A stretch of 64,000 nt of DNA, from the NCBI GenBank assembly GCA_963808235.1, contig CAWEEQ010000003.1:48629-112628 (forward strand). Direction: 5' to 3'. Made by a program: the position numbers and the translations under genes. This document shows positions 12,068 to 51,604 of the stretch, in pieces; positions within the stretch are counted from its first letter, which is position 1; each line of letters opens with the position of its first letter. The stretch comes from an uncultured delta proteobacterium (GTDB taxonomy: Bacteria > Desulfobacterota > Binatia > Binatales > Binataceae). Below the pieces are notes generated by a model, which did not search any database, was not told where the DNA came from, and worked only from the letters and a program-made list of their open reading frames with translations.

Positions 12068-12070
12068 GCG

Positions 12071-14647
12071 ATGATTCCGCCCGGATTGCCGCACGACTTG
12101 AGCCTGGCGCATCCGCTAGCGCTCTACCTGCTCGCGATTCCCGCGCTCGTACTGCTGTGGGGAATAGTCAACACGCGAGAACTTCGCGGCGTGCCGGCTC
12201 CTCTAATGCGCGCGATCGTGCTTGCGCTCTTTGTGATCGCGCTGGCGAATCCGCAGCATGTGATGCACTCCGAGGGCGCGGCGCGGCCGGTGATCGTCGA
12301 CGCGAGCGCGAGTATCACGCCGCAGATGCGCGCGTGGACGGTTAAGTTGCTGCGTGACGAGCTCGGCCTTCGCGGCGGCGATCCGGCCTTCATGTTCGCG
12401 ACCGGCGCGATCCCGGAAACGATCGCCGCGATGGAATCCGCGTTCGATAACGGCACGGGTTGCGCCGACTGCGGAGCCGGCGCCACCAATCTCGAAGGCG
12501 CACTGTACCGTATCGCCGCCGATCCCGATGCGCATGGCGGCCCGGCGGTGCTGGTGACCGACGGATGGCAAAACCGTGGCGACGCGGAACGCGCGATAAG
12601 CGCGATCGTCTCCGCCGAGATTCGCCTCGATATCTTCACCCCGCCGGGTGCGCGGTCTATTCCAAATGTGGCGATGACCGAGCTCACGCTGCCGCACGCG
12701 CTCGAGAAGGCCGCACCATTCGCGCTCGGGGTCACGATGGAAAATCTCAACGACGCGCCGGTGAACGGCTCAATCACGATCGATCGCGATGGACTCGAAA
12801 TCGAGCAGCGCAAAGTCACACTCGCGCGGGGCTCCCAGCGCTTCGACTTTCCGGTCCATACCGAGAGCGTCGGGCTCGCTTCGTACGGCGCCGTCTTCAA
12901 ACCCTCCGATCCTGCGCAAGACGCGTACCTGGAGGACGATTCGCTCAAGGGATGGGTCGGAGTTGGCGCGCAGCGAAGAGTTTTGATCCTTACCGACAGC
13001 GCGAAGGACGCAAACTATCTCGGCACAGTCGTGCGGCGGATGGGACTCGATCCGGCGATCGTGACGGTGACCGACGAACAGTGGGACGGCAGTATTGCGG
13101 GCTACGACGCGATTCTGATCAACAACGTGCCGAGCGAGCGAATCGCGCCGGCGGCGCAGAGCGCGCTCGTGAGTTACGTCAATCGTGGCGGTTCGCTCGC
13201 GATGATTGGCGGCGATTCGAGCTTCGGACTCGGAGGTTACGCCGACAGCCCGCTCGCGCCGGTGATGCCGGTGACGATGAAACCCCCGCAGCATAAGGAA
13301 CGCAAACGCGCGCTGGTCATGGTGATCGACAAGTCGGGCTCGATGGGCCGCAACGACAAACTCACCTACGCAAAAGCCGCGGCCGGAACCGTTACCAAAA
13401 CGCTGAAGGACTCCGACCTGATCGGCGTGATCGGATTCGATTCGCAGCCGTTCGTCGTAATTCCGCTCCAGACGGTGGGACAGAGCCGCCCGTATTTCGA
13501 GGAAATGATCAACCGGCTCTCGGCGCATGGACAGACCTACCTGATTCCGGCGCTGAAGGAGGCTGAACGAACGCTCGGTGGGAGTGGCGCGCAGGTGAAG
13601 CATGTCGTGATCCTCACCGACGGCGAGACCGGCGGCACCGCCGAGATGTACTACGACCTGGTTTCGCGGATGCATCATGATTCCGGCGCGACGATTTCGA
13701 CGATCGCGGTCGGGCGCGAGGCCAACGTCGATCTGCTGCAGGCGATTGCGAAGTACGGCGGCGGATCGTACTTCCAGACCGACAGCGCGCAGAACCTGCC
13801 GCAGCTATTCGTCGAAGATTTCCGCAGTCATGGCGGCGAGACCACGATGGTCGAAAATGAGTTCTCGCCGCACAGCGCGAATCCCGATCCGATTCTGAAA
13901 GATCTTGCGAGCCGCCAGATGCCCGCGCTCAAGGGCTACGTCTCCACCGAAATAAAGCCGCGCGCCGATATGAGTATGTATGTCGACAGGAGCGGCACCG
14001 AGGAACCGGTAATCGCGAGCTGGAGATATGGCGCAGGAAAAGCGATGGCGGTTACCACCGATGCGAGCGGGCGATGGTCGGGAAAATGGGTGACCGGAAA
14101 TGTTTTCCAGCCGCTTTGGGACCGCCTGCTGGCGTGGATGACGCCCGAGTCGCCGGCCGAGCCCAAGATCGATGTTGCGCTCGGCTACAACGCAGGACGA
14201 ATCAATATCAAGCTTACCGACTACAGCGCCGAACCCGCCAACACGACCCATCTGGTGACGGTGCTGGTCACTCGTCCGGATGGGAGCAAAGTCGAAACGG
14301 CGCTCACCGAAGAAGTGGCCGGCGAACTGGCGGGATCGATCGAGGCGCCCGAGGCAGGGAACTACTATTTCGAAGTTCGCTCGCCCGCGGGCAAGGATAA
14401 AAAATTTCCGCCGCTCGCGTACACGGTGAGTCCTTCGGTCACCGCGGAGTTGCCGCGCCCCGAACCCAACTACGGCCTGCTCGAGCATCTTGCGTCGGCG
14501 ACCGGCGGGCGGCTCAATCCGACGCCGGCGGAAGTTGTGACCAGCCGCGCGACGATCGAGCGCCGGGTGTCGATGGATCCGTACCTGGTCGTTGCCGCGA
14601 TGATCATCCTGATCGGCGAGGCACTGGTACGACGCCTCACCGCATGA
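12071..14647 (+). CDS. Double-VWA / glutamine-amidotransferase-like membrane protein
   Basis: [21 protein letters not shown]...[30 protein letters not shown]-terminal TM GEALVRR. Confidence 0.85.
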
Positions 14648-22216: not shown

Positions 22217-22529
22217 CCAGTTCGCGATGAACTCCGTTTCCTCGTGCCTCCTTGGTGTTCGGTCACAAACGAGGCGTGCAGCCAGAGTGAACCGAATGTT
22301 CAGTCCGCCTGCATCTCTAGGTTCAGCGCCCGAGCAAACGCTAATGATCCAGCCCGGTTGTGGACGCCCACGCCAAGTGTCGTAGCCGTAGGTAACGCGA
22401 TGCCGATCTTAAGGCGGCGGCCTGAAGATCAAGCACCACTCGGTGTCAAAAAGACTTGACGTGAGTTGAGCGCTGTTGGATCGTTCTCAAGTTCGACACA
22501 CCAGACTTGGGGGAGGTCGTCGGAACGAG

Positions 22530-24707
22530 TTGTCGGCACAGAGGCCAGTCAAGGTTGCAATCATCGGCGGTGGATGCGGCGCGATTGCCGCAGCTTTCGA
22601 GCTAAGCCGTCCCGCGCACCAGGGCAAATATGAGATAACCGTCTACCAACTCGGCTGGCGTCTCGGCGGCAAGGGAGCGTCGGGGCGGGGACCTGCTGGT
22701 CGAATTGAAGAGCACGGTTTCCACGTTTGGTTTGGCTTCTACGAAAACGCATTTCGCCTCATGCGCGAATGCTACGCCGAACTAGGTAGAGATCCGCGGA
22801 CATGCAGGATCTCGGATTGGCGAGATGCCTTTTTTCCGGCGCCATTCATCGGAATCGCCGCGCAATCGGAAGCTGGTCCCTCCCAAACATGGTTGTCCTA
22901 CTTTCCCGCGGCTGAAGGCCTGCCGGGTGATCCGCCGACCAACACTCAACCGTTCAGCATATCGTCCTACCTGGCACATACCGCTTCCGCGTTGCGATCG
23001 ATGCTAATGGCAGGAGAGTCGCTGGCCACAAAACAGCGGGAAGATGCGCGGACCGAAAACCAGCCGACGGACTCCCTGAATGCGTTTCTCAATATCGGAA
23101 GCGGGCAACCCGAAGACCTCACAATGCGGATCGCGCGCCTTCTCAAATATGGCCTGCTAGCGACGACCGCAGGCATAGTTGAAGGACTCGGACTCCTTCG
23201 CGTGATGTTCGAACGACTCGCAGTTTATCCTCAGATCGTTCTACCCTTTTTGGAAGCGATCTCGTCCGCGGCCCGACAACAAATCGAACCTCTCTTCAGT
23301 CGCGATCCTGAACTGGCTCTGGTCTGGCAGGCTATCGATCTTGGGATGACTGCGATGCTTGGAATAATCAGGTTTGGGCTGGTTTCCGATCCGAAAGGGT
23401 TCGACGCCATAAATGACTACGACTTTCGGGAGTGGATGCGTATCAATGGTGCATCTGAAACCACCATCAACTCCCCTCTGGTTCGCTCGTCGTACGATCT
23501 TGCAATGGCCTACGAGGACGGCGATTACAGCCGGGCTCGTCACGCGGCCGGCGTCGCTCTGCGGGGCTCCCTTCGATTTCTGTTTACCTACCGTGGCTCT
23601 CTCGTATGGAAAATGCGCGCTGGCATGGGAGACGTAGTGTTCGCACCATTCTACGAAGTGCTCAAGCGGCGCGGTGTCTCCTTCAGATTTTTTCATCGGC
23701 TCCAGAACGTGAAGCTGGCTCAAGCGGAAGATCCACGTTCGGGTAAACACGGTCATGTAAAGGAACTCCGGTTCGGCGTCCAGGCTGAAGTGCGTAGCGG
23801 CGATTACAATCCCCTGATTGATGTCGACGGTCTTCCTTGCTGGCCATCGACGCCCGACTATTCGCAGCTGGTAGACGGTAGCGAGCTGAGGGGCCAGAAA
23901 TTCGAATCACACTGGGATATGCGCACGGTCGGGACCAAGGTCTTGCGCGTGGGCGAGGATTTCGACTTCGTCGTTCTGGGTATTGGCCTTGGTGCGATTC
24001 CTTTCGTTTGTCAGGACCTTATCGAAAGGGACGAGAAATGGCGCAATATGGTTACTCGAATCAAAACCGTTGAGACCCAGGCCTTCCAGCTCTGGCTGAA
24101 TGAAGGTATGGAATCACTCGGCTGGAATGGACCGCCGATCTCGATGTGTGGCCTGCCCCGACCTTTCGACACCTGGGGCGACATGAGACATCTCATTTCC
24201 GAAGAGAAATGGCCGGTGGCGCCCAAGGCGATCGCGTACTTTTGCAGCGCGCTTACTGACCCACCTGATGCAGGGCTCAAGTCAAGCGATGCTGACTACG
24301 AATCAGGGCGCAGAGAGCAGGTCCGCAAGAGTGCGATTGGATTTCTCAACAATGAGATTGGTCAGCTCTGGCCGCACGCCATCAGGCATCCTGGCAAATT
24401 CAGGTGGGAGCTGTTGACCTCGATGAACGGTTCGGACGTCCGAGAAGAAGCTCGTTTTGACACACAATTCTGGACCGCGAACGTCAATCCCTCTGACCGC
24501 TATGTGCTCTCTCTTCCGGGTACGCAGAAGTATCGAATTTCTCCTTTGGATAATACCTACGACAATTTGACAATCGCTGGTGACTGGACCGCTTGCGGGT
24601 TGGACACCGGGTGCGTGGAGTCTGCCGTCATCTCGGGCCGGCTGGCCGCTCATGCGATTTCCAAGTATCCTGCGTTGACCGAGATTGTCGGCTATGACCA
24701 TCCCTGA
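22530..24707 (+). CDS. FAD-dependent oxidoreductase, amine-oxidase superfamily (phytoene desaturase/HpnE/CrtU-like motifs)
   Basis: VAIIGGGCGA, RLGGKGAS, EEHGFHVWFGFYENAF, NLTIAGDWT...VESAVISG. TTG 22530 chosen for its upstream GGAGG; the ORF is open from 22476. Confidence 0.85.
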   Translation: MSAQRPVKVAIIGGGCGAIAAAFELSRPAHQGKYEITVYQLGWRLGGKGASGRGPAGRIEEHGFHVWFGFYENAFRLMRECYAELGRDPRTCRISDWRDAFFPAPFIGIAAQSEAGPSQTWLSYFPAAEGLPGDPPTNTQPFSISSYLAHTASALRSMLMAGESLATKQREDARTENQPTDSLNAFLNIGSGQPEDLTMRIARLLKYGLLATTAGIVEGLGLLRVMFERLAVYPQIVLPFLEAISSAARQQIEPLFSRDPELALVWQAIDLGMTAMLGIIRFGLVSDPKGFDAINDYDFREWMRINGASETTINSPLVRSSYDLAMAYEDGDYSRARHAAGVALRGSLRFLFTYRGSLVWKMRAGMGDVVFAPFYEVLKRRGVSFRFFHRLQNVKLAQAEDPRSGKHGHVKELRFGVQAEVRSGDYNPLIDVDGLPCWPSTPDYSQLVDGSELRGQKFESHWDMRTVGTKVLRVGEDFDFVVLGIGLGAIPFVCQDLIERDEKWRNMVTRIKTVETQAFQLWLNEGMESLGWNGPPISMCGLPRPFDTWGDMRHLISEEKWPVAPKAIAYFCSALTDPPDAGLKSSDADYESGRREQVRKSAIGFLNNEIGQLWPHAIRHPGKFRWELLTSMNGSDVREEARFDTQFWTANVNPSDRYVLSLPGTQKYRISPLDNTYDNLTIAGDWTACGLDTGCVESAVISGRLAAHAISKYPALTEIVGYDHP

Positions 24708-24722
24708 AACGGCGAGAACGGC

Positions 24723-25436
24723 ATGAGCGACCGCGAGCGCCTGCGTCGAGAAGAACCGGAGAGAACCGGTCCCATACGCAATTTCTCCGGTCTATACCAA
24801 TGGTCCGGTTCTGAAACCCGCTCTGCCAAGCCATCCTCTCCGAGTAGCGGTTCCGACGAAGGGCCGGAAGATTCGCGTGAAGAAAGTGTAGGTCTTGCTT
24901 ATCGCGTGATTGAGAAACATATAAGCGACGGCAAAAAGAGCGCCGGACAATTCAACAACAAGTCGTACAATATGAGCGCGCTGACAGATGGATTACAGGA
25001 CGTTCTGGAACGCACGATCCGCAGCCAGATCGAGTTGATTCCAGGATGGATCGACGCGCTTGGTTCTGCCTTCCGGGTCGACCCGGCGCGAATGCCCTAC
25101 CCGCCGGCATCACCCGCTAACTCCCAATTCAACGGCGCTGCCAAACAAGCCTCGAAGCCGATATCGATTGAGGTCGCCTCGGTCCGGCCGGTGCGCGTTT
25201 CAATCAATTTCAGTGAAAACGGCGAGCCGCTTCCCGTGGTCTCTCTCCGCGATGGTCTTGACGAAACCAAGCCCCAACTGAGCGGGGTCAGCTTTGCATT
25301 TGACGCCGCGTCGGGGGAAATGAAGGTAAGGATTTCGGTGCCCGACAACCAGCCTCCAGGCGTTTATTCCGGGGTGATTGTAAGCCGGGAAACGGGCGAG
25401 CCTCTGGGAACTCTGAGCGTGCAAATTGCGGGTTAG
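24723..25436 (+). CDS. Hypothetical protein with C-terminal beta-sandwich-like region
   Basis: 15-bp and 25-bp gaps to neighbours; C-terminal VPDNQPPGVYSGVIV...GTLSVQI. Confidence 0.7.
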   Translation: MSDRERLRREEPERTGPIRNFSGLYQWSGSETRSAKPSSPSSGSDEGPEDSREESVGLAYRVIEKHISDGKKSAGQFNNKSYNMSALTDGLQDVLERTIRSQIELIPGWIDALGSAFRVDPARMPYPPASPANSQFNGAAKQASKPISIEVASVRPVRVSINFSENGEPLPVVSLRDGLDETKPQLSGVSFAFDAASGEMKVRISVPDNQPPGVYSGVIVSRETGEPLGTLSVQIAG

Positions 25437-25461
25437 TTAAGATCTCAAAGCAGGCGATGCG

Positions 25462-26496
25462 ATGACCTCCGGCAACGGTTCAGGTCTGGTTTCCACGATC
25501 TTGCGCGAGTACGGCAGCCTGACGCGTGCCGCACTAAAGGAATACCTGCCCGAGCGGGAACCGCGTCGCTATCTATACGATCTCCTCAACGACTATCCGC
25601 AACGCGGCGGCAAGATGATGCGACCCAGCTTGTGCATCGCTACCGCTCGTCTGTTCGGTGCGCCGATCGAACAAGCGATCCGTACCGCGGTTGCGATTGA
25701 ACTGCTGCACAACGCATTGCTTATTCACGACGATATTGAGGACGGCAGTGAAAGGCGAAGAGGAGCCCCTACTCTTCATCTGCTGCACGGAGTGCCACTC
25801 GCCCTCAATGCCGGTGACATGCTGTCGCTGATGGCTCTCCGCCCACTACTCGACAATCGCGGCTTCCTCGGCGACCAGCTCGCACTTCGAATTCTCGAAG
25901 AGACCGAGCGAATGGCGCGCGAGTGTGCTGAGGGTCAGTCGATGGAACTCGGCTGGCGTCACTACAACGCGACTGAAATCGGTGACGGCGAATACCTGGA
26001 GATGGTGCTGAAGAAGACTTGCTGGCTGGCAACCATTTTCCCGATTCGGGTTGGCGCGTTAATAGGCAGCCGCGGGACCGCCGATCTGGAAGCCTTTTTG
26101 CGCTTCGGATTCTTCCTCGGCGCCGCCTTCCAGATTCAGGACGACCTGCTCAATCTGGTTGCAGATGAGAGCTACGGCAAAGAGCGCGACGGCGATCTCT
26201 GGGAAGGCAAACGGACGCTGATACTAATCCATGCCCTTCGTGAGTCGACTTCTGAGGAACGGGAGCGGCTCTGTGCCGCGTTATGCGGTTCTCGGGAAAA
26301 ACGACTGGCAGGAGAAGTGCAATGGATGCGCTCGTTGATCGATAAGTACGAGGGCGCTCGCTATGCGCGCCGAATCGCCCAGGAACTGGCCGGCGCTGCG
26401 CTTCATGAGTTCGAGCTGCTAGCCGGCGGACTGCCCGATTCGCGAGACAAGGTGTTCCTTGGACGGATGGCAACCTGGGTGATCGAAAGAAACTGA
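25462..26496 (+). CDS. trans-Polyprenyl diphosphate synthase
   Basis: GGKMMRP, FARM HDDIED...RRG, GQSME, KKT, SARM FQIQDDLLN, DLWEGKRT. Confidence 0.93.
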   Translation: MTSGNGSGLVSTILREYGSLTRAALKEYLPEREPRRYLYDLLNDYPQRGGKMMRPSLCIATARLFGAPIEQAIRTAVAIELLHNALLIHDDIEDGSERRRGAPTLHLLHGVPLALNAGDMLSLMALRPLLDNRGFLGDQLALRILEETERMARECAEGQSMELGWRHYNATEIGDGEYLEMVLKKTCWLATIFPIRVGALIGSRGTADLEAFLRFGFFLGAAFQIQDDLLNLVADESYGKERDGDLWEGKRTLILIHALRESTSEERERLCAALCGSREKRLAGEVQWMRSLIDKYEGARYARRIAQELAGAALHEFELLAGGLPDSRDKVFLGRMATWVIERN

Positions 26497-26501
26497 AGGA
26501 A

Positions 26502-28106
26502 ATGCATATGGCAAATGCAAATCAACAAACCGGAAGAACGTTGCCCAAATACAACGATGCACTCGGCGACTTTCTGAGACTTCCCGCGCAGATACCCCAA
26601 ACATACACCGATGTTCTGACGCAGGTGTATCCATTGCCGGCCGATATTAGCGCGCTCAAGACGTTCTGCGGAAATTTTCTCAATCAGCAAGAGCCTTGCG
26701 CATGGATATTCGAACCAGCGGCGCCATGGGTCGTTATGCAGGTGTGCAACTACGGCAAGATAGCTATGACCTCGCAGAACGTTGGTTGGGTTTCCCAACA
26801 CGAATTCGCTTTCGGATTTCCTGTGGCATGGTACGAGAAGGGGAAAAACGGAGAGCGGAAGTTCATGGATTGGGCAATGGTCTATCCATATATCTGGGTG
26901 GACGACCCGCTGTCGATGTCCCTGGGTCGCCAAGTCTATGGATGGGCCAAGGCTGGGATCGTACTCAATTGGCCCCGGCCCAACCTTGAACCGAACACGC
27001 GGAGCCTGGTGAGCATCGACCTTAAGGGTGGGCCTGGGGGCTCCGGCGTGGACGACCAAACACGCCCGAGATTTCTCGAGATCCTTCAGCATCAGCCCGT
27101 GCTGTCCGGCAGATCGGGATTTGCAACGCTTAGCTCGCTGCCGGCCCGGATAATGGGCACCTATTTGTCGGCCGCGTCCGGCATGCTGGGCACATTCAAC
27201 AGCATGATCAGTGGCTATCAGGAGCGCCTATCCGGTTACGCAAACACGCAACAGCCGCTGCAGGGTCTTATCAGGGAGTCCGCGAATCTAACTGGTCAAA
27301 CTCTGCGATGGAACAACTACCTCGAAGAATTTTTGTCTGGCGCCCGCGATCTGACCCTCGCGCAGGAGCGGGTTTTGGGGATGCCGGTCGGGTCGGACGG
27401 CATCGAAGCTATACTGAGAAGCACCGCTGGTAAAGTCAGAATCATCACGCAGAAGCAAGTTCGAGACGCCGCGTGCCCCGACGATGCCGGCTTCAGCGCG
27501 CTTGTCGGCTCGACGATCAAGTACAGCCAGCCCATCGATGGCGGGCTCCTGCTTTCCGATCCCTTATCCCCGGATTCGAGCGGCGGCATTCAGATCTGTC
27601 TCCGCGATGATTTCGGCATCGTTGGCAGCCTTGGCCTCAAGCATCTGGACAGTGTGGATAACAACGCCCGCTGGTCAGTGCGCAGGCTACGGCCGGTGAT
27701 GCCGTTCTGGGTGAAACTCAACATGTCCTACGATTCGGCGGACTGTCAGACTTGGCGCACGAGAGGTACGGACTGGGCGATTGATTATCGAAGCCCCGAG
27801 CCTGATCCGCCGTCGGGTGGGGGTGCGTCACTCGGACAACCGCAACCAGAGACCAGGCGATCGAGTTCCCGAATTGAAGATGCCGACAAACTTCCTCGCC
27901 TCGAGTATATTCCGTGGGGCAGTGGTGCTTCGCAGGAAATCGCGGGTCCCATGAAGGCTGCGAACTTCGGCTTGTGGGTCTATGGTCTGGAGGCAGACGG
28001 GGAGACGCTTAAAGCATTGTGCAATGAGTACCTGAATCAAGCGGAAGGTGGTCAGTCGTTCCATCAATTCGAGGTCAGTCCGCCATCAAAAGGGATGGCT
28101 TCCTGA
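26502..28106 (+). CDS. Acetoacetate-decarboxylase-like protein, N-terminal part
   Basis: YPYIWVDDPLSMSLGRQVYGWAK (ADC-like Lys motif), KQVRDA; a second similar domain starts near the end of the ORF. Confidence 0.7.
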   Translation: MHMANANQQTGRTLPKYNDALGDFLRLPAQIPQTYTDVLTQVYPLPADISALKTFCGNFLNQQEPCAWIFEPAAPWVVMQVCNYGKIAMTSQNVGWVSQHEFAFGFPVAWYEKGKNGERKFMDWAMVYPYIWVDDPLSMSLGRQVYGWAKAGIVLNWPRPNLEPNTRSLVSIDLKGGPGGSGVDDQTRPRFLEILQHQPVLSGRSGFATLSSLPARIMGTYLSAASGMLGTFNSMISGYQERLSGYANTQQPLQGLIRESANLTGQTLRWNNYLEEFLSGARDLTLAQERVLGMPVGSDGIEAILRSTAGKVRIITQKQVRDAACPDDAGFSALVGSTIKYSQPIDGGLLLSDPLSPDSSGGIQICLRDDFGIVGSLGLKHLDSVDNNARWSVRRLRPVMPFWVKLNMSYDSADCQTWRTRGTDWAIDYRSPEPDPPSGGGASLGQPQPETRRSSSRIEDADKLPRLEYIPWGSGASQEIAGPMKAANFGLWVYGLEADGETLKALCNEYLNQAEGGQSFHQFEVSPPSKGMAS

Positions 28107-29039
28107 ATCAGAAGCAAGGAGTCTTATACGTCCTGATGATAGTGAGTAGTTTCGACGCCCTGTGCGGGACAGGTAAAGCGCCCGAATTTAATGATCTGAG
28201 CGATCGCGTCTTGACGTTTGCGATACCCGCCACCCACACCTACGGCGGCCGGACACACAAGTGCTCATTCCCCTGTATACCTTCGTCGAACAGGACTGGG
28301 ATTTTCTGACCGAGAACGAGGTCTATGGAAGGTTCGCCTTCAAGTCGCTCTTGCAAAGCCCGCCGAACAGGTGGGTTGAACAATCGAAGGAGAAACAGGA
28401 GCTCCTTACTGTGCACACGACTGTCTTTCCCGCGGCAAATCAGAGCCTCAGCGCGCGCGATTCAGACCGCTCATCCAGATCTGGGCGCCCTCAAAAGCCG
28501 AGCAGTCGAACGCCTTAGAGTCGCTGAGGGTCGCAGGTAACATCGCGGACGAGCAGATCTTGAACACTTACCTTAAATGGTTGGGACTGGAAGAGGCCAG
28601 CGTGCGAGGCGACGACACCGGCATTCGCAGCGTTGCCTTAAAGCAAGTCCGAGATGCAATCGAAACAGATCGCGCATGTTATCAGGCAATCGTGGGCGTG
28701 ACCCGAAAGATTGAAGGGGGATGGAGTAAGGTCCGTGCTTCTTCCGACAGCCTGGAGGTGCGCTTCTACACGTATCCCGGTGTTACGAATCCCGACGTGA
28801 CGAATCCCGGTGTGAGGTATTCCGGTGTGAAGTATTCCGGTGTGACGATCTACGAGACGATGGGCATTAACGGAGCACTAACTGAAGATGCTTATCACAA
28901 GTATTACAGTGCCAATACTCTCCCTGGGGCGAGGATATATGGCAAGATGTCCGACCAGTTGGGCCAGAATCTGTGCTGGACAATCGAGCAGGGCAAGTGG
29001 CAGGACGATCGGAGCGCTGCGGAGAAGTTTTTTTCGTAA
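28091..29039 (+). pseudogene. Frameshifted continuation (second ADC-like domain) of the 26502 gene; pseudogene or assembly errors
   Basis: Three successive -1 shifts (~28090, ~28255, ~28455) join YVLMIVSSF...LTFAIP / PLYTFVEQDW...EVYG / RPLIQIW...ALKQVRDA...CYQAIV and return to the original frame. Confidence 0.65.
28770..28844 (+). repeat. 5 x 15-bp in-frame tandem repeat (TYPGV TNPDV TNPGV RYSGV KYSGV)
   Basis: acgtatcccggtgtt/acgaatcccgacgtg/acgaatcccggtgtg/aggtattccggtgtg/aagtattccggtgtg. Confidence 0.85.
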
Positions 29040-29057
29040 GTCTCCGCTAGATGAAAA

Positions 29058-30041
29058 TCAACAGTAGCCGATTTCGCGGTACCAGCGTATGGCGTCCATT
29101 ATAGTCTCGGAAAGAGGCCGCGCGGTGATGCCCAGTTCCTGGAGTGTGTCGGTTCGATCCAGGTAATCGAACGCCGTGGCCATCATCATCCCGGCGGAGA
29201 TTATAGGCGTTTGCTGGCCGAACATACTGAACACAACCTCCGTCCAGTATGAGCCGAACGCCGCGAGGCTGGTCGCGGTCGCGAACCTCGGCATCGGCAC
29301 ACCTCCCATCGCGCAGATCAAAGCATACAAATCGCGAGTCGAGATGTCGTGGCCGGCCATCAAGAGCGGCTTGCCGTATCTCTCGCCATCGATTGCTGCC
29401 ATGAGGCCGGCCGACACGTCTCGAATGTCGATCACGTTCAACATTTGCGAGATCGACCCGGGTATTTCGCCGCAAAGAAGGAGCGGAATAGTGCAGACGC
29501 GGCGATCGTGCAAGTCCCATGGGCCAAGACAGTAAGTGGGATTGATGATGATGGCGCGAAGGCCGCGCCGCCCAGCGTCGAGAATCTGATCTTCGATCAG
29601 TTCTTTCACTTCGGAGTACGGAAGCGTTAGACGTATCGCCCGTTCGCGGAGACGCTGCGCTTCTGTTCGCGGACTGACCAGAGTGACGAACGAACCCACG
29701 TATGCGAGCCGGGCATCATGCCGCGAGACCGCATCAACAAGTCGGCGCGTTCGCGCTTCTGCAGCCACGAAAGGATCTTGCTCAGGTTCGCGCCCCGGAA
29801 ATACCAAAGACATCGGATAAGGTGCCGCGCCATCGACAACAAGGTCGTGTCCGGGAATCCATTTGTCCAACTGGCCCGGCGCGTCGGCGTCACCCCGCAG
29901 GTAAGTCACGGGCAAGCCTGAAAGATTGAGCGGCGGCGCGGGCCGCCGTCCGCACGCCGTTACCTCCCATTTCCGATCAAGGAGTGCACGAGTGATCGCA
30001 TTGCCGACATGACCGCTCGCGCCGATTACAAGAGCCTTCAT
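29058..30041 (-). CDS. NAD-dependent epimerase/dehydratase (extended SDR, HpnA/dihydroflavonol-reductase-like)
   Basis: MKALVIGASGHVG, YSEVK, NPTYCLGPWD, NVIDIRDV. Confidence 0.85.
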   Translation of the reverse strand: MKALVIGASGHVGNAITRALLDRKWEVTACGRRPAPPLNLSGLPVTYLRGDADAPGQLDKWIPGHDLVVDGAAPYPMSLVFPGREPEQDPFVAAEARTRRLVDAVSRHDARLAYVGSFVTLVSPRTEAQRLRERAIRLTLPYSEVKELIEDQILDAGRRGLRAIIINPTYCLGPWDLHDRRVCTIPLLLCGEIPGSISQMLNVIDIRDVSAGLMAAIDGERYGKPLLMAGHDISTRDLYALICAMGGVPMPRFATATSLAAFGSYWTEVVFSMFGQQTPIISAGMMMATAFDYLDRTDTLQELGITARPLSETIMDAIRWYREIGYC

Positions 30042-30123
30042 AGGTAACGATGCATTTTCTGTTCGAGCCCAAAAGGGCGTATTATTCGGTATCTCGTTGT
30101 ACCGCAACCGCTGGAGTGCTGCG

Positions 30124-30990
30124 ATGTCCGATGAGCATCGTTTCCGTTCGTCATTCTCATTCAATCCGGAAGTTGACCTACCCGCCGCGGTATACGTGAG
30201 CCAGCTTTGGTTGTATTCGCTTGCGGTCTTATACCCGACGCAGGCTTTGAAACGAATGGCTCTGTTCGTGAAAACCTCGGTGGGCAGATATCCGACGGTC
30301 TCGCGGATACGAGGCGAAGGACAGTACTACTGCCACGAATATCCAGAGCCAGTACTGCTCGATCGCACCTCTGAGCATGCCGACTCCGTCAGCGAATTCG
30401 ACCGTGGCGCGGACTTGTACGAAAGAATTGTGTCGCCGTTTACCCGGCCCGTCCATGAGGAAGCTTTCACGCTCGTCCGCCGGCTTCTACCACCGGCGGC
30501 CAGAATCCTGGACCTCTCTTGCGGGCCTGGAACAGAATTGTTTCGTCTGGCTGAGTTAGTTCCCGAGGGTGAAGTCATAGGAATTGATCTCTCGGCCGAG
30601 ATGGTGGCCGCGGCGCACGCAGGTGCCAAACAGCGCGGATTGCGAAATACGGCTTTCTTTCAGGCCGACGTGACCAGCTTACCGGACTATTTCGGCGGAC
30701 GTTTCGATGCCGTCCACTGCTCCTTTGCTTTCCATCATTATCAGGATCCGGTCGCAGCATTGAATGAGGCGCATCGCGTCCTCAATCGCGACGGGAAGGC
30801 ATTTGTCATCGACGGAGGTACGCGGTGGGCCAATATGCTCAGCGCTCCGTTTGCGAAGTGGGCCGATCCCGGCTGGGTCGCATTTCACACCGGACAGCAA
30901 TTTGAGCGACTGTTTCTGAACTCAGGATTCTCTGCCTTCTACTGGGAAGAGGTGCTGCCGGGTATAGGTATGTGTATAGGCAGCAAATGA
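30124..30990 (+). CDS. Class I SAM-dependent methyltransferase (UbiE/MenG-like core) with N-terminal extension
   Basis: ILDLSCGPG, GIDLSAEMV, FFQADV, FDAV, RVLNRDG; start uncertain. Confidence 0.85.
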   Translation: MSDEHRFRSSFSFNPEVDLPAAVYVSQLWLYSLAVLYPTQALKRMALFVKTSVGRYPTVSRIRGEGQYYCHEYPEPVLLDRTSEHADSVSEFDRGADLYERIVSPFTRPVHEEAFTLVRRLLPPAARILDLSCGPGTELFRLAELVPEGEVIGIDLSAEMVAAAHAGAKQRGLRNTAFFQADVTSLPDYFGGRFDAVHCSFAFHHYQDPVAALNEAHRVLNRDGKAFVIDGGTRWANMLSAPFAKWADPGWVAFHTGQQFERLFLNSGFSAFYWEEVLPGIGMCIGSK

Positions 30991-31022
30991 TTTGTGTAAC
31001 TGACTTCGCTCAAGTTCTCATC

Positions 31023-34000
31023 TTACGGAGAGCCAAGCTCGTCGAGCAGCGCCTTGGCAGCTTTGAGCTCAGGCATGTCGAATCCCTCGATGAAGAGCGC
31101 GTAGGTCTCGCTTAGTACCTGTTGCGCTTCAGCTTGCCGATTGTCTCGCTTGAGCAGGCGGCTCAAGCTCACCGACGCCCGTAATTCAAACGATTTCGCG
31201 CTTTGCAGACGCGCGACTCTTATCGCGGTGCGGAAGTTCTGCTCGGCGGATGATTCCATCGACTTGATTTCAGCTGGAGAGATGCCGCCCCCGGAGGCTT
31301 GCTTGAGAGTCACTTCGCCCTTGATCCGGTGAATCTCGGCTTCGACGTATCGCTCTTCATTGCGTTCCATCAACGCTTCAGCTTGCGCGATCAAGGCAAG
31401 TGCCGTATCGATCCGGCCATGCTTGCCCAAACCTTCTGCAAGATACGAGCGCGCCCATGTCTGGGCTAGTTCATATCCCACCTCAGAGAGCTTTCTGTGA
31501 CGGCGCGAGACGACCTTTAGTTCGTCGATCCTTCCCAGAGCCGCTAGTCCGATCGTCTGATATGCAATCAGACCCTCCTTGTAAAAGCCGAATTCGCGCT
31601 CATTTGCCAGCGCCAACCCTTCCTCTATAAATGCGGCTGCGCGAAGAAAGTCCCATCTCATCGAGGCGTACTTGGCCATCATGCAGAGGCATACCACAAG
31701 GGTGAATGGTGATCGAAGTTCGCGTGCAAGCAGTAGTGACTCTTGCGCCTTTTTTTCGGCTTGATCCGCGTACCCGAGTATCCAGAGAGTCATGGCATCG
31801 TAAATGAGAGACAAAACACCCGGTTCGTTACCAGATTGAAAAGCGAGCGTGTGGTGCTTTTGCGGATCATAGTGCTGAAAGCTCAATTCGAAATTGCCGT
31901 GAGCACCTATAAAATCGGCCATAAAGAACTGCGAATATCCCCAGACCCAATACGCCTGCACGAGCATTTCGTCGTTACGGGCGGTTCGCGCCAGTTGCAT
32001 CATTTCGTTGCCGTATGAGCGCGCCGCCTGAAGTTTAGGTATGTATACGTGGAAGTTCGCCAGTCCAGACAATACCGAGAAGAGCCGAGGATCGTCTCCG
32101 CCAAGCCCCCGACAGAGTTCACGAGCTCGCTTGTAGGCGTCTCCATACTCGGAGGCGGACCAGCCTTTCATAGCCAGCATCGCCAGGCCGTAGTCGATTT
32201 GAATACCTAGCTCAGTACGGGCTCGCTCCTGAGAATCAGGTAGTTTCGGAATCAATTCAAGAGCATTGTTCAAGTAGAAAAGAGCGCTCTTATAGGCGCT
32301 TTGCTCGATCGCGAGCCTTCCTGCGATGGCAAGGAATCGTAGCGTTCTGTTGGCGTCGGCAGCCGTACCTGCCTGCCAGAGATGATGGGCGAGATCGCTG
32401 GCGTGGTTGTCAAGTGCAGCACTATGAATGCTCTCAATCGCATTCGCGATGCCAAGATGAAGCCGTTGACGGCGTGGCGGCGATAAGTCGGCGATCACCG
32501 CCTGGCGGACTAGTTCGTGAGAAAACTGGAATCGTGCCTCCGGATAGTCTAGCGCCGATAAAATCAAGCCGGCCTTCTCCGCCTCCTCAACCTGGTCCAG
32601 GAGGGAGTCCGGATCCAAACCCGTTGCTGCCTCGAGCAGCCCGAAATTAAACGAGCGTCCTATTAGCGCCGCCGTCCCAAGAGCCCTTTGGGTGCTATCG
32701 CTCAGTTTCGCCAGCCTCCTCCCAATTGCCAGTCGGACATTTGGCGGCACGTCGATATCTGAAAGGGACCGGTCTCGGCGGAACTCAGCGCCGGATTCTA
32801 TAAGCTCGCCGCGTTCGATCAGGTGACGAAAAACCTCCTCGACAAAGAAAGGGTTCCCCTCCGTACTCGAGTAGATGAATTCGACCACGGTCGGAGATGG
32901 ATCGCTCCCGCTCAAGTCGCGCAGCATGGAGGCGACCGCATCTATCGAAAGTCCGGAAAGACTTAGGCGATCCACAAGATGAAGACGATTGAGTTCGTCC
33001 ACAGCTTGCGCGAGCGGGCTGGCCTCGTCGAATTCGTTGTCGCGATAGGTTCCCACCACCAGCAAGGGAACCTGCGAGAGCGATCTCGCCAAGTGGGTCA
33101 GCGCCGAAAGCGTACTCTCATCCGCCCAATGCAGATCTTCGAGCAGAACAACCACCGGGATATTCTGCGCCGCGCGCGTAATTACATTGGTGATGGCTGT
33201 CAACAAAATCCGACGCGATTGCTCCGGCGCGACCTCGGACAAAGGCGGGATCTCGGGGAACATCCGCCTGAGCTGCGGTAGCAAGCGTGAGATCTCAGGA
33301 GCGTCCGAGCCTAGAGAATTGAGAAATGCCTTGGGGCTGGTTGCGTGAGCGAGCGAAGTCTCCAGAATCTCAACAAACGGCAGGAAGGGTTCCGGCTCCT
33401 CTCTATCATAGCAGTTGCCGGAGATCGCAATCAGACCGTTGCGAACAACCTTCGCGCAGAACTCGGTCGCGATCCGAGTCTTGCCAACGCCCGGAGGGCC
33501 GCTGATCATCACCACCCTTCCCTTGCCGCTCCGCGCGTAGTCAAGAACCCGATCGAGGACCGCACTTTCCGCTTCTCTGCCGACGAAAGTCGTTCGTCCG
33601 ATCACTGCTTGGGCAAATGCGAATTCGTTGCTCGGAAGAACAGGAGCGGTGGAATCGCTCGCGGCCGCGGGCTCGAGCGAGTTTGTTGAAAATTGCCAGA
33701 CAGTCGGTGCCTGCAAATCCGCGACATACGAGCAAAACGAGCCAGTCCGGACCGATCGATCCAGCATCCCGCCAAGCCCGCTGTCGTGCTCCGAGATCTT
33801 ATGCAGCGCGGCCGTGATCGCGCGACTTACGTTGAGTCTCGCACGCTCCGCGACTGAACCCGCCCGCCTGTCGCGACCACTCAAGCCAATCGCGCGAGAT
33901 ATCTCTCGCGCCAGGAAATCGATCTCCGACTCAATCTCCGCTGCCCGTTCGCTGTTTCCGAGCGCTTGCGAGTCTTCCAGTTGTTCGCGCAGTTCAACCA

Positions 34001-34340
34001 GCCGGCGTTTGTAGTCCTGCTTCGCTTTCCCGTCGAGCATCTCCCCGGCATCTCCAAGTCGTCCAACACTCAAGTTGGAGTCGGTTGAAGCTGTCTCGAG
34101 GTATGAGCCTTCAGGAGCGATGGCGGTGTCGGGACCGCTCACGAGATCGAGAGCGTGAAACTCCTCGCCCGGATGCTGAAGCAAGCGATATATATACGCC
34201 AGGCCTTTCGAGGCTCTGATCGAAAAGGTCGCGCCAGGTTCGCCAATCGTCCAGTAGTCGCCGGTAGTTGCGAAGACCACCGTCTTCGTAGGGCTTTCAA
34301 CGCGCTGAGAATTCGCCGAGCGATTCTCGTGCCGGTTCAC
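31023..34340 (-). CDS. STAND (AAA_16-type) ATPase with TPR-like C-terminus and N-terminal putative DNA-binding domain
   Basis: FVGRE, GPPGVGKT, LEDLHWAD, TEGNPFF, FSHELVR; N-terminal KGLAYI..LL..P..E.HALDL...AERARLNVSRAI. Confidence 0.88.
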   Translation of the reverse strand: MNRHENRSANSQRVESPTKTVVFATTGDYWTIGEPGATFSIRASKGLAYIYRLLQHPGEEFHALDLVSGPDTAIAPEGSYLETASTDSNLSVGRLGDAGEMLDGKAKQDYKRRLVELREQLEDSQALGNSERAAEIESEIDFLAREISRAIGLSGRDRRAGSVAERARLNVSRAITAALHKISEHDSGLGGMLDRSVRTGSFCSYVADLQAPTVWQFSTNSLEPAAASDSTAPVLPSNEFAFAQAVIGRTTFVGREAESAVLDRVLDYARSGKGRVVMISGPPGVGKTRIATEFCAKVVRNGLIAISGNCYDREEPEPFLPFVEILETSLAHATSPKAFLNSLGSDAPEISRLLPQLRRMFPEIPPLSEVAPEQSRRILLTAITNVITRAAQNIPVVVLLEDLHWADESTLSALTHLARSLSQVPLLVVGTYRDNEFDEASPLAQAVDELNRLHLVDRLSLSGLSIDAVASMLRDLSGSDPSPTVVEFIYSSTEGNPFFVEEVFRHLIERGELIESGAEFRRDRSLSDIDVPPNVRLAIGRRLAKLSDSTQRALGTAALIGRSFNFGLLEAATGLDPDSLLDQVEEAEKAGLILSALDYPEARFQFSHELVRQAVIADLSPPRRQRLHLGIANAIESIHSAALDNHASDLAHHLWQAGTAADANRTLRFLAIAGRLAIEQSAYKSALFYLNNALELIPKLPDSQERARTELGIQIDYGLAMLAMKGWSASEYGDAYKRARELCRGLGGDDPRLFSVLSGLANFHVYIPKLQAARSYGNEMMQLARTARNDEMLVQAYWVWGYSQFFMADFIGAHGNFELSFQHYDPQKHHTLAFQSGNEPGVLSLIYDAMTLWILGYADQAEKKAQESLLLARELRSPFTLVVCLCMMAKYASMRWDFLRAAAFIEEGLALANEREFGFYKEGLIAYQTIGLAALGRIDELKVVSRRHRKLSEVGYELAQTWARSYLAEGLGKHGRIDTALALIAQAEALMERNEERYVEAEIHRIKGEVTLKQASGGGISPAEIKSMESSAEQNFRTAIRVARLQSAKSFELRASVSLSRLLKRDNRQAEAQQVLSETYALFIEGFDMPELKAAKALLDELGSP

Positions 34341-35901: not shown

Positions 35902-38900
35902 TTACGAGCCGAGATCATCCAAAATCGTTTTTGCCTGGATCAAATCGTAAGTCTGGAATCCTTCGGTAAATTTCTCGAGTGCCGAGCTGAGCGTCCGGCG
36001 CGCCTCGTCCTGCTTGCCGACGCCCGCGAGCATGCGCGCGAGGCTGGTGGCCGCGCGCAGTTCCCACGATAGCGCCCCGCTCTTGCGCGCGACCTCGATC
36101 GCGTGCCGGAAGCATCGCTCAGCTTCGGCATCATGGTCCGAGCGGAGCAGCATCCCCACGCCGCGAAGCCTGTGAATTTCGACCTCCAGCAGGCGAATGT
36201 CCGATTGCTCGCACCGCTGCGCGGCCTTATCGAGTACAATGAAACCGTCCTCAAGACGTTTCATCATCAGGTACACTTCCGCGAGCAGGACGAATGAGAA
36301 TGAGTAGATGAGATCAGCGCCGCTGGCGGCCAGGCCGTCAACGGCCTCTTTGAGCATCGCGAGCCCGGAGTCTATTGCGGCTTGATCGCCGCTGGATATA
36401 GCTTCGCCGGCGATCGTGCGTCCCAGGCACATCTTCCCCGCGGCCAGCCAGTACGGAAGTCCGTGTTCGCTGGCCAGTTCGATCAGCGCTTCCGAGCGCG
36501 GCCGCACTTCGGCGTACTCGCGCCGGAAATGCATCAACACGATCGAGTACAGGTTGGAAAACGCAAGACTGAAAGGACGGCGAAGCTGGCGGGCCAAATC
36601 GTCCGACTGGGTCATCCGCTGTCTCGCCTGCTCCGGAAATCCCGCGGCGTGAAGCGCCCACGCAAGGTTGCATAGCGACGGTGTGACGGGCGCGTTCATC
36701 ATCGGCAGATAGCGCGGAATATCGCGCTCGAGGATATCGTGGCAAATTTTCAAGTGGTCGCACGCGGCGGGAAATTCGCCCATCCAGAGCAGCGTCGCTC
36801 CCATCGCGTTGTGCGCTCCCGCGGTTGCGAGATCGCTCCTCTCGTCTCCGTGGGTTCGCTCGGCCATGGTCAGTAATTTCTCCGCAATGACGCGGCTCTC
36901 GCGCAGGCGCCCGCTGGCGTGATCGAGGCTCCAGAGCGAGAACAACACGCCGAAGACCTCGGGCGTCTCGCCGGCACGGCGGCAGAGTTCCTGCGCGCGC
37001 GCGACGTTGCCGGCCATTTCCGGCGCGGAGAATCCCTGGGTCGCGACGATCAACGGCCCGAGCATCATGCGGACCCGCAGCTCATTCTGATCGCGCTCGC
37101 GCGATTCCGGCATCATGGCTATCCAGCGCAGCGCCTCTCGCGCACATGCGATAGCGTCATTGTACGCGGAGCGGACTGCGGCCTGCTCCGCCGCGCGGCG
37201 CAAATACTCGATTGCCTTGGCCGCGTTGCCGCTGCGGTTGTAATGATGCGCCAGGTCGGCGAGGTGATCTTCGAGCTTCGCGGAAAATATTTCCTCGAGC
37301 GCGGTCGCGGTGCGCTCATGGATTGTCTTGCGCCGCTCCGACAGGATCGAGTCGTACGCGACCTCCTGGGTGAGCGCGTGCTTGAAGGTGTAGTCGCTCT
37401 CGGGAAACGCAGGCTGCTCGTAGATGAACTCGCCGAGCTGCAGATTCGATAGCATCGCGGCCAGCTCGTCGTCGGGTTTTTTGGCCACCCGCCGCATCAG
37501 GCCCATCGGAAATTCCTTGCCGATAACCGAAAGCGTCTGGAGCAAATCCTTGTCGCCGGCGGAGAGCTTGTCGATTCGCGCAGCCAGGATTCCTTTAACG
37601 GTCGGCGGAATTTGAATCGACGCGAGCGGTTTCGCGATCGACACTTTGCCGTTGCGCGCCAACACGCCCTGGTCGAACAGCACCTGCACCATCTCTTCCA
37701 TGAAGAACGGATTGCCTTCGGTGCGCTCGATGATCGTCGTGCGAAGCGGGCCGAGCTCGCCGCTTTCACCCAGAAGTTCCGACAGAAGTTCGGTGGCATT
37801 ACTCTGTCCGAGAGGATCGAGACGCAACTGCGTGTAGTAAGTTTTGTTGCCCCAGTTGTGACGATACTCGGGCCGATAATTCACCATCATCAGGATTCGC
37901 GCGGTTCCGATCGAGTCGGCCATCAGATTCAGCAGCGCTTCAGATTCCGCATCCACCCAGTGCAAATCTTCGAAGATGAGCAGCAGCGGCTGATCGAGGC
38001 TCTCACGCATGATCAGGCTCCTGACCGCTTCGCGCGTGCGCCGGCGCCGAATCGAGGGATCCATTTCCTCGAGCGCGGCGTCACCGGTTGAGATTCCGAG
38101 CAACGCGAAAAGATGCGGCAGCGTGCCCTCGAGCGCGCGGTCCAGCGCGAGCGCCTTGCCGGTGACTTTCTCGCGCCGGGTGCGCTCGTCGTCCTGATCC
38201 GCGACACGAAAATAGTCCTTGAGCAGCTCGACGACCGGCAGATATGCGGACGCCTTGCCGTGCGAGACCGAAAACGCCTCGAGCACAAGGCATCCGCTCT
38301 GCGAGCGCAACTTGAACTCGTGGAAGAGGCGCGACTTGCCAACTCCAGCCTCTGCTATCGCGGCGACAATCTGCCCGTGTCCTTCGCGGGCCAGCTCCAG
38401 CGCGCGCGCGAGCTGTTCCATCTCGGCGACTCGGCCGACAAACTTGGTGAGCCCGCGCGACTGCGAAACTTGCAGCCGCGTCCTGAGCGGGCCGGTCCCG
38501 ATCACCTCGTAAACATTGATTGGATCGCTGACGCCCTTGATGCGCGCCGGGCCAAGCGCTCTCGATTCGAAGTATCCGGCGGTCAGCTTCTGCGTATGTT
38601 CCGTGATGACGATCGATCCGGTCGGCGCCAGCGTTTGCATCCGCGCCGCCAGGCTCGTCGAGTGGCCGATGGGCGTGTATTCGGTATGCGCGTCGTCGGT
38701 GCGAATCGAGCGCACCACCACCTCGCCGGTGTTCAGTCCCACCCGGACTTCGACCGGCGGATTGCCCGCCGCGCGCAGCTCCGCCGAGTAACGGCGCATC
38801 TCCTCCTGCACGCGGAGCGCCGCGTAGAGTGCGCGCTGGGGATGATCCTCGTGCGCTACCGGCGCGCCGAACAGCGCGAAGACTCCGTCGCCGGTGGACT

Positions 38901-39319
38901 GCACGATGTAACCGTCGTAGCGATGCACCGCGTCGATCATCAGCTTCAACGCCGGATCGATGATCGCGCGCGCTTCTTCGGGATCGAGATCCTCCATCAG
39001 GTCCATCGATCCCTTGATATCCGCAAACAGCGCCGTGACGGTCTTGCGCTCGCCGCCCAACACTTCCGACTCCGGCAGCTCCGGCGCGATGCGGACCGAA
39101 GGCGTTTGCTCCGAAGATCTGTGTGCCAGATGGAGCCGGCTTTGCGGCGACCGTCCCCTCAGAGGCCGGCGTCAGCGATACGCCGCATTCGCCGCAGAAT
39201 TTGAAGTGTGGCGGATTCTCGAATCCGCAAGCAGTGCATTTGTTCTGCAGCGGAGCCGCGCAATTGCCGCAGAACTTCATTCCGGCAGGATTTTCAGTGC
39301 CGCAACTCGAGCATCGCAT
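35902..39319 (-). CDS. Double zinc ribbon + class III nucleotide cyclase + STAND ATPase + TPR protein (one frameshift near 39125)
   Basis: CSSC/CGNC/CTAC/CGEC at 39319 in one frame; ERKTVTALFADIKGS, GDG, AGVGKS, EDLHW, TEGNPFF, FKHALTQE in ORF 35902..39063. Confidence 0.88.
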
Positions 39320-47521: not shown

Positions 47522-47524
47522 CGA

Positions 47525-51597: not shown

Positions 51598-51604
51598 CGG
51601 CTGG

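Follow-up and report, generated by a model that had tools for sequence, protein, structure and literature searches.

The question raised by this locus is what a compact set of genes that includes its own prenyl diphosphate synthase gene could make, and whether these genes form a functional unit. The genes lie at positions 22476 to 34340 of the stretch of DNA analysed here (64000 nt of contig CAWEEQ010000003.1 in GenBank assembly GCA_963808235.1, contig positions 48629 to 112628; referred to as the window), which comes from an uncultured delta proteobacterium of the Binatia. A first-pass annotation of the window had proposed that they constitute an undescribed isoprenoid biosynthetic cassette. 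No description of the gene combination was found in the literature, subscription journals not being covered, and the word undescribed is to be taken as provisional. On balance, the block appears to be one copy of a widespread, uncharacterised module that tailors an isoprenoid via carbonyl (Schiff-base) chemistry, and its product is probably an unknown lipid or signal.

Gene content of the cassette

The core of the cassette is a row of four genes on the + strand, and the listing of open reading frames (ORFs) confirmed that they are co-oriented and separated by 15, 25 and 5 nt, as the first-pass annotation had stated. They encode a flavoprotein of the phytoene desaturase (PDS)/HpnE type in the amine-oxidase superfamily (P1; coordinates 22476 to 24707), a 237 aa protein without known family that is the predicted partner of P1 (P2; 24723 to 25436), a trans-isoprenyl diphosphate synthase resembling geranylgeranyl diphosphate synthases (GGPPS; 25462 to 26496), and a tandem protein of the acetoacetate decarboxylase (ADC) superfamily, the gene for which is broken (P4; 26502 to 29039). 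The likely start of P1 is a TTG codon at 22530 that is preceded by GGAGG; it is later than the start of the listed ORF and gives a protein of 725 aa.

Beyond P4 are genes for an HpnA/3beta-HSD-like extended short-chain dehydrogenase/reductase (SDR; 29058 to 30164, - strand), a class I S-adenosylmethionine (SAM)-dependent methyltransferase (30097 to 30990, + strand) and a 1105 aa STAND-type protein with AAA_16 and TPR regions and a 250 aa N-terminal domain without family (31023 to 34340, - strand). The likely starts of the reductase (ATG at 30044; 328 aa) and of the methyltransferase (ATG at 30124) were taken from the starts of alignments and are later than the ORF starts. No integral membrane segment was evident from hydropathy in any cassette protein.

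The family assignments of the first-pass annotation were found to hold at the level of superfamilies (Pfam, NCBIfam). Its statement that the set could not be assigned to a known route was borne out, as no component reached a curated carotenoid, hopanoid, sterol or quinone cut-off.

Linkage of the core genes across phyla

One genome per species was scanned with an alignment (A1) of 27 full-length relatives of P4, and 208 matching stretches were found, of which 125 encode a relative. The 80 best loci were retained together with flanks of up to 10 kb per side, and every stop-to-stop ORF in them was compared with the window proteins using phmmer (E ≤ 1e-5). The 54 loci that are 21 kb or longer were regarded as having full flanks.

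Besides P4, which is present in all 80 loci, the synthase was found in 70, P1 in 69, P2 in 66, the STAND protein in 60 and the SDR in 47. Matches to the methyltransferase at any score were seen in only 6 of the 80 loci, and in 3 of the 80 at 100 bits or more. All four core genes were found together in 64 of the 80 loci; of the 54 with full flanks, 49 have the four. This answers in the affirmative the question, left by the first-pass annotation, of whether the flavoprotein, hypothetical protein, synthase and ADC-like genes co-occur across phyla, and the lack of conserved synteny that it had named as grounds for refutation is clearly not what was observed. The core and the STAND gene were present together in 44 of the 54 full-flank loci, and the core, STAND and SDR genes in 36 of the 54. 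The carriers include Binatia, Alpha- and Gammaproteobacteria, Nitrospirota, Myxococcota and Holophagales, and also Rhodobacteraceae, Rhodopila, Thiohalocapsa, Methylococcaceae and Rubrivivax; partial sets were seen in Planctomycetota and Cyanobium. The most frequent arrangement is P1-P2-synthase-P4 with the SDR and STAND genes after it on the opposite strand. In the Rhodobacteraceae the order is P1-P2-synthase-STAND-SDR on one strand, convergent with P4.

The genes that flank the cassette were unrelated among six diverse loci, and no phytoene/squalene synthase or terpene cyclase was found in the flanks of these six, in keeping with the absence of such genes remarked on by the first-pass annotation. 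The Pfam family of HpnC/HpnD-type synthases was not found in the scanned ORFs of the window, and no squalene/phytoene synthase or cyclase family occurred among the widely common families of the 80 loci. When the six cassette families are set aside, along with ORFs that overlap them in antisense, the widest common family was a classical SDR present in 20 loci, mostly of Binatia. One single-linkage cluster that spans 76 loci (502 members in all) was taken, from its listed members, to consist of shadow ORFs.

A tree of P1 (quick method, LG+G4, 51 rows) placed the window with loci L018, L020 and L025 (SH-aLRT, i.e. approximate likelihood ratio support, 100). This group lies inside a clade of loci labelled Binatia/Binatus or 'uncultured delta proteobacterium' (support 97 and 95). 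Phylum labels were clustered on the tree, with 7 changes compared with 15.2 in shuffles, and in 0 of 200 shuffles were there as few.

The prenyl diphosphate synthase

The synthase belongs to the polyprenyl_synt family (PF00348; 185.5 bits against a cut-off of 27) and has both Asp-rich motifs, DDxxD and DDxxN being invariant in 70 of 70 sequences. It scored under the cut-offs of all the GGPPS equivalog families, namely NF041003 (178 against 500), NF040698 (201.7 against 468) and NF045685 (89.5 against 460); by name, the scores are 201.7 against 468 for IdsA and 178 against 500 for GGPP_syn. The nearest solved relative is the GGPPS of Thermus thermophilus (1wmw; E = 2.3e-58), which shares DDxxD and DDxxN with it. 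However, 68 of the 70 synthases have Ala five residues before the first Asp-rich motif, whereas 1wmw has Trp there, and the length of the product may differ. The product could be C20 or longer, a reading of the sequence that draws in part on established work on chain-length determination.

The flavoprotein and its predicted partner

P1 matched NAD_binding_8 (PF13450; 36.4 against 21.9) and Amino_oxidase (PF01593; 41.7 against 19.8), though only at its N- and C-terminal ends. These scores, together with an N-terminal GxGxxG and a C-terminal FAD motif, place it in the flavin amine-oxidase/PDS-type superfamily. In 51 orthologues from across the phyla, with a mean column identity of 56%, G31, G33, G702-D703-W704 and a C-terminal D-H-P are invariant. 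P1 nevertheless falls well below the cut-offs of the hydroxysqualene dehydroxylase HpnE (TIGR03467; 59.3 against 283.05 bits, with only residues 27 to 102 aligning well), PDS (TIGR02731; 32.4 against 569.4) and zeta-carotene desaturase (ZDS; TIGR02732; 32.4 against 622.15). A sequence search of solved structures gave no match for P1, and a profile of it matched only the plant PDS 5mog (E = 1.2e-4), at both termini. Relatives of P1 are named at source 'FAD-dependent oxidoreductase' or 'uncharacterized protein with NAD-binding domain and iron-sulfur cluster'. In a passage of one paper, COG3349 serves as the label for cyanobacterial phytoene desaturase (PMC4558948).

The closest known systems are the three-step HpnC/HpnD/HpnE route to squalene and plant-type PDS, with which the cassette shares the proximity of the flavoprotein gene to a prenyl diphosphate synthase gene. 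P1 itself has in common with HpnE, PDS and ZDS a dinucleotide-binding region at the N-terminus and an FAD motif at the C-terminus. In contrast to HpnE and PDS, P1 is ~725 aa long with ~550 central residues that match nothing, its scores lie far under the cut-offs, and its gene is accompanied not by HpnC/D or a phytoene synthase but by the small partner P2.

No family was found for P2 in Pfam, NCBIfam or PADLOC, and the Atlas returned only unnamed clusters. A profile of P2 found 1832 representatives at E ≤ 1e-3 and 1400 at E ≤ 1e-10, the best 150 being 177 to 324 aa long. An AlphaFold2 (AF2) model of P2, with a predicted local distance difference test (pLDDT) score of 69.9, has a disordered Arg-rich N-terminus, a helical hairpin (residues 50 to 116) and a beta-sandwich (147 to 235), and had no structural neighbour in Foldseek at E ≤ 0.001 (best E = 0.048).

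Prediction of a P1-P2 complex gave scores for the interface (ipSAE) of 0.76, 0.01 and 0.75 (median 0.75), the best of three controls being 0.00. This mark is reached by 116 of 157 solved complexes and by 2 of 215 mismatched pairs. Contacts agree between the runs to at least 3%, and the partner has a pLDDT of at least 45, so that its own fold is uncertain. In the model, the confident contacts run from P2 residues 6 to 22, which include the nearly invariant R6, R9, R14, P17 and R19, to P1 residues that include 689 to 699 and 740 to 743, of which 741 to 743 are invariant. P2 is therefore predicted to dock on P1 via its N-terminal segment.

The tandem ADC-superfamily protein

The first ORF of P4 (26502 to 28106; 534 aa) is followed by three further frame segments. 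A word-indexed search found 32 relatives of the 534 aa ORF, nearly all of 740 to 906 aa, and the closest (P0002 to P0010) share 57-66% identity with it. When relatives P0002, P0003 and P0005 were compared with the window using tblastn, their residues ~2 to 520 mapped to 26517 to 28097 in frame 1, where a stop follows at 28106, residues 523 to 568 to 28106 to 28243 in frame 3, residues 578 to 638 to 28261 to 28443 in frame 2, and residues 639 to 815 to 28431 to 29036, again in frame 1. A 15 bp tandem repeat of 5.3 copies (28770 to 28848, + strand; Tandem Repeats Finder score 88) also lies in the part that encodes domain 2; it is in frame, and in an alignment it inserts 20 aa at a conserved strand, which are absent from nine relatives. 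As P4 is interrupted, the window copy of the cassette may be inactive or mis-assembled. The breaks and the repeat point slightly to a real lesion or a locally poor assembly.

The fold was modelled not on the broken window gene but on relative P0002 using AF2 with 58 sequences (pLDDT 82.5; predicted template modelling score 0.85). In a Foldseek search of the PDB, the top 24 matches to this model were all members of the ADC family (E 5e-10 to 2e-7, probability 1.00; TM score 0.50-0.66, normalised to the target), led by ADC, MppR, the aldolase-dehydratase of S. bingchenggensis and Swit_4259. The model thus supports an ADC (beta-cone) fold for P4. The Pfam ADC family (PF06314; cut-off 29.8) scored 34.4 for the orthologue in L024, which is above the cut-off, and 27.8, 26.4 and 19.8 for others. 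A sequence search of solved structures with the P4 ORF gave no match, a profile of the whole protein gave only chance helical matches, and the Atlas result, which consists of ADC-bearing clusters with low recognition (1540), was kept only as a lead.

The N-terminal and C-terminal halves of P4 align with each other (hhalign probability 100, E = 1e-48), supporting a true internal tandem duplication. The tandem ADC-like protein of the first-pass annotation therefore stands as to fold and duplication, but not as an intact gene in the window. In the hhalign alignment, the Glu and Lys of the first half have no equivalent in the second. All 69 N-terminal domains compared share E101, R143 and K150 (numbered as in the window protein), and a profile of this domain matched only 6eej/4zbo in the PDB (E = 0.12), with the invariant Lys paired with chain residue K122. 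We take K122 to be the Schiff-base residue of that enzyme, and titles of entries mention Schiff-base or covalent complexes. The Schiff-base step suggested in the first-pass annotation is plausible for P4, given the ADC fold, the Lys that is invariant in 69 of 69 domains and its weak alignment with K122.

P4 has its fold in common with the ADC-superfamily enzymes (4zbt/6eej, MppR 4jm3, Swit_4259 5upb, and the true ADC entries 3bh2 and 3cmb), but differs from them in being a fusion of two domains, of which only the first has the Lys and Glu, and in having a helical insertion of ~100 aa, which the model places in domain 1. In many lineages there are also 300 to 480 extra C-terminal residues, poorly conserved, charged and probably helical, as a result of which P4 outside the Binatia is often 1030 to 1320 aa long (loci L023 to L080). 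This extension matched no Pfam family and had no separate counterpart in Binatia loci. No description of an isoprenoid gene context for the ADC superfamily was found in the literature covered, and the gene context of P4 argues for a substrate other than acetoacetate, the substrate of ADC proper (EC 4.1.1.4).

A placement of P4 in the AttH/CrtC carotenoid-hydratase branch was also considered and rejected, as no AttH/CrtC entry is among the listed Foldseek matches and the leading matches all belong to the ADC family. Separately, a second tandem ADC-like gene, transcribed divergently from P1, was seen upstream of it in L018 (3497 to 5818, - strand) and L020 (9935 to 11395, + strand), which are among the closest cassette relatives of the window. 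The window carries a gene for an unrelated 894 aa choice-of-anchor-D protein at this position.

The reductase, methyltransferase and STAND protein

The reductase is an extended SDR (PF01370, Epimerase; 42.6 against 20.9) with GxxGxxG and YxxxK in 40 of 40 sequences. It scored below the cut-offs of the hopanoid-associated sugar epimerase HpnA (TIGR03466; 132.9 against 367.65) and SdmB (81.8 against 600), and its nearest PDB entry is 3wj7 (E = 2.7e-19). Thirteen loci have a saccharopine-dehydrogenase-like reductase beside P4 (by Pfam on three of them), and the HpnA-like SDR was found in none of the 13, suggesting that the reductase slot is filled by either type.

The methyltransferase passed the cut-offs of generic class I SAM domains only (Methyltransf_25, 82.4 bits) and fell below that of the quinone methyltransferase UbiE/MenG (TIGR01934; 67.3 against 158.35). 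Its orthologues at 100 bits or more are confined to the three loci L018, L020 and L025. It is a lineage-specific accessory of the sub-clade of the window, and the methylation that the first-pass annotation had included in the route is not part of the conserved set.

The STAND protein matched AAA_16 (102.7 bits) and TPR, and scored 276.4 against a cut-off of 705.75 with TIGR03903 (TOMM kinase/cyclase fusion), covering only model positions 480 to 1267. Neither a kinase nor a cyclase domain was found in it using Pfam and NCBIfam, and its first 250 aa matched no family and showed no similarity to the cyclase domain encoded nearby. The N-termini of orthologues consist of SAM and Guanylate_cyc domains (L056), a cyclase (L033, L018 and L025) or a kinase with GAF and histidine kinase (L074). 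The AAA_16 and TPR body is shared with cyclase-AAA_16-TPR proteins like the TOMM kinase/cyclase, and orthologues in other loci retain the cyclase, whereas the window protein has the domain without family in its place. The first-pass annotation had listed this protein as a regulator among the genes that follow the core. However, it is a co-inherited member of the cassette rather than just a nearby regulator, being present in 60 of the 80 loci, and in the Rhodobacteraceae its gene lies within the row, between the synthase and reductase genes and on the same strand.

A paralogue with adenylate/guanylate cyclase, AAA_16 and TPR regions is encoded one gene away from the STAND gene (35902 to 39063, - strand); it shares 29% identity with the window STAND protein over 886 aa, has a normal, high G+C content at third codon positions (GC3 0.78) and lies outside the low-GC block. 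In Methylotetracoccus oryzae (L033; 13668 to 21178), two cyclase-AAA_16-TPR genes come after the cassette and are themselves followed by a gene for a Crp-like regulator that binds cyclic nucleotides (cNMP), a layout that hints at a cyclic-nucleotide output.

Proposed pathway

That the genes work together is argued from their linkage, from purifying selection acting on all of the catalytic motifs and from the contact predicted between P1 and P2, and the presence of a dedicated prenyl synthase argues for biosynthesis and against degradation. It is proposed that the four core genes are co-transcribed. The data bear directly on the gene content, the linkage, the folds, the catalytic motifs and, as a prediction, the P1-P2 interface; the substrate, the order of the steps, each reaction and the product are inferred.

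In the proposed scheme, the synthase would supply an all-trans prenyl diphosphate of C20 or longer, and P1, complexed with P2 via the conserved N-terminal peptide of P2, would oxidise or desaturate the chain or a derivative of it. Domain 1 of P4 could then handle a carbonyl intermediate as a Schiff base, using the invariant Lys and Glu, in an aldol, retro-aldol, hydration or decarboxylation reaction, while domain 2, which has lost both residues, may have a structural role. A keto or enal group would be reduced by the SDR or its substitute, the methyltransferase would add one further step in the sub-clade of the window only, and the STAND protein would either control the pathway or respond to it.

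If this reading is right, it would provide the first link found between the ADC superfamily of Schiff-base enzymes and isoprenoid metabolism, and a new partner subunit for a PDS/HpnE-type flavoprotein. The usual hallmark of an isoprenoid gene cluster is a gene for a terpene cyclase or for a squalene/phytoene synthase. Rules of this kind would probably miss a cassette that has neither. The module has nonetheless stayed whole in lineages that range from Binatia to roseobacters, myxobacteria and Nitrospirota, and P2 alone forms ~1400 distinct clusters at 50% identity (E ≤ 1e-10). The product is directly testable, as the cassette is carried by cultured strains, namely Sulfitobacter mediterraneus DSM 12244, Minicystis rosea DSM 24000, Rhodopila globiformis DSM 161, Methylotetracoccus oryzae C50C1 and Polyangium fumosum DSM 14668.

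Weighing of the explanations

Several observations weigh against an isoprenoid-tailoring module. No member of the cassette is characterised as to product, substrate or activity. The cassette was not found to encode a phosphatase, a terpene synthase or any other enzyme able to convert the diphosphate to a carbonyl, and this step is therefore the weakest link in the scheme. Part of the core is absent from 5 of the 54 full-flank loci (L023, L027, L068, L060 and L032). In L023, L027 and L068, P4 occurs without P1, P2 or the synthase nearby, though two of these three are second copies in genomes that also carry the full cassette; in L032, P2 was not detected. Several loci on short contigs show the ADC-like gene alone. 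In the window itself, P4 has three frame changes inside ~350 bp as well as the repeat expansion, and its ORF scores only 15.8 bits (E = 0.01) with the Pfam ADC family, which is below the cut-off, so that the ADC assignment rests on structure. The Lys aligns only weakly with a solved enzyme of the ADC family (E = 0.12), one of the three P1-P2 runs scored 0.01 and the fold of P2 itself is uncertain, and the synthases have Ala where the nearest solved GGPPS has Trp, which allows more than one chain length.

The breaks in P4 raise the possibility that the window cassette is a decaying remnant and that its product is no longer made, which we regard as conceivable but rather doubtful. The clustering of the three frame changes, the 20 aa insertion that nine relatives lack and a database entry with the same truncated P4 (532 aa), though from the same contig, fit decay, but each of the remaining seven ORFs has its full length and undamaged motifs. 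A classical SDR gene elsewhere in the window (50819 to 51600, - strand) also changes frame near its 5' end, the N-terminal part with TGxxxGxG lying in a different frame from the 186 aa ORF, which bears on the quality of the assembly, and genes are fragmented in related loci from metagenome-assembled genomes (L017, L050, L067 and L079). Assembly indels are therefore a live alternative to decay. An accessory role in one of the known routes to carotenoids, hopanoids or sterols is unlikely, and distinctly more so than decay; P1 would then be a desaturase or HpnE-type reductase, the SDR would be of the HpnA/SdmB type, and genes elsewhere in the genome would make the C30/C40 skeleton. The only recognisable relatives of P1 are indeed HpnE, PDS, ZDS and the plant PDS 5mog, the best families of the reductase are HpnA and SdmB, some carriers are phototrophs or methanotrophs, and in L018 a CrtC-like gene lies ~6 kb from the cassette. 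However, the scores are far under the cut-offs (HpnE 59.3 against 283, PDS 32.4 against 569, HpnA 132.9 against 368 and SdmB 81.8 against 600), neither the flanks of the six loci nor the widely common families include a squalene/phytoene synthase or cyclase family, and the cassette has its own prenyl synthase and an ADC-type protein. We know of no carotenoid, hopanoid or sterol route that uses an ADC-type protein.

The STAND protein suggests other explanations. The module could be mainly one of signalling, in which the enzymes make an isoprenoid ligand for the STAND protein and this yields a cyclic nucleotide or other output; we hold this to be improbable, to the same degree as the accessory role, and it is compatible with the favoured explanation. 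It is consistent with the occurrence of the STAND gene in 60 of the 80 loci and its position on the same strand between the synthase and reductase genes of the Rhodobacteraceae, with adenylate/guanylate cyclase domains in the orthologues of L056, L033, L018 and L025, and with the two cyclase-type STAND proteins that precede the Crp-like regulator in L033. On the other hand, the N-terminal output domain varies, being a cyclase, a kinase or, in the window, 250 aa without family, and ordinary regulation of the pathway accounts equally well for the linkage. A more specific idea, a shade less probable again, is that a polyprenyl-derived aldehyde or ketone is held covalently on the Lys of P4 or sensed by the STAND protein, forming a self-contained isoprenoid signalling or chromophore system. 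If true, bacteria of many phyla would have a class of lipid signal that has so far gone unrecognised, with a receptor of its own and, in many lineages, a cyclic-nucleotide output. An anti-phage or stress defence system built around the STAND NTPase is the least credible of the explanations and was rejected. STAND NTPases are common in defence systems, and the composition of the block is unlike that of its flanks, but no family of PADLOC-DB 2.0 matched P1, P2, the synthase, P4 (as P0002) or the SDR, the STAND protein gave only marginal matches (E 7e-4 to 6e-3) and the methyltransferase a generic one, no mobile-element genes lie beside the block, and the P1 tree largely follows taxonomy.

Base composition and other features of the window

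The first-pass annotation had also described the block as compositionally distinct. The GC3 of the eight cassette ORFs is indeed low (0.61-0.66, mean 0.631) compared with the 38 other ORFs (mean 0.731; Mann-Whitney p = 2.5e-5), and the borders are sharp, as the adjoining genes have values of 0.766 and 0.767. However, this is not special to the genome examined, as the same offset was found in 15 of 16 Binatia-type loci, with the G+C content of the cassette 0.012-0.042 below that of the flanks. In other phyla, the G+C content of the cassette follows that of the host. The offset is therefore a lineage trait of the cassette and not a sign of a recent island here. The flanks of the block carry ordinary chromosomal genes, and no mobile-element genes were found among them.

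Elsewhere in the window, a 340 aa ORF without Pfam family (46782 to 47804, - strand) has a GC3 of 0.42 compared with 0.72-0.79 in its neighbours, and could be either a gene of foreign origin or an ORF called on the wrong strand. Paralogous gene pairs that encode BatA-N-terminal and VWA/GATase1-like proteins and resemble an aerotolerance operon are located at opposite ends of the window (10265 to 14647, + strand, and 59126 to 63563, - strand), and a DUF58 gene is present at 63579 to 63962. The gene at 4346 to 5473 (- strand) combines an S1/P1 nuclease domain with an Ada-type zinc-binding domain, an unusual fusion.

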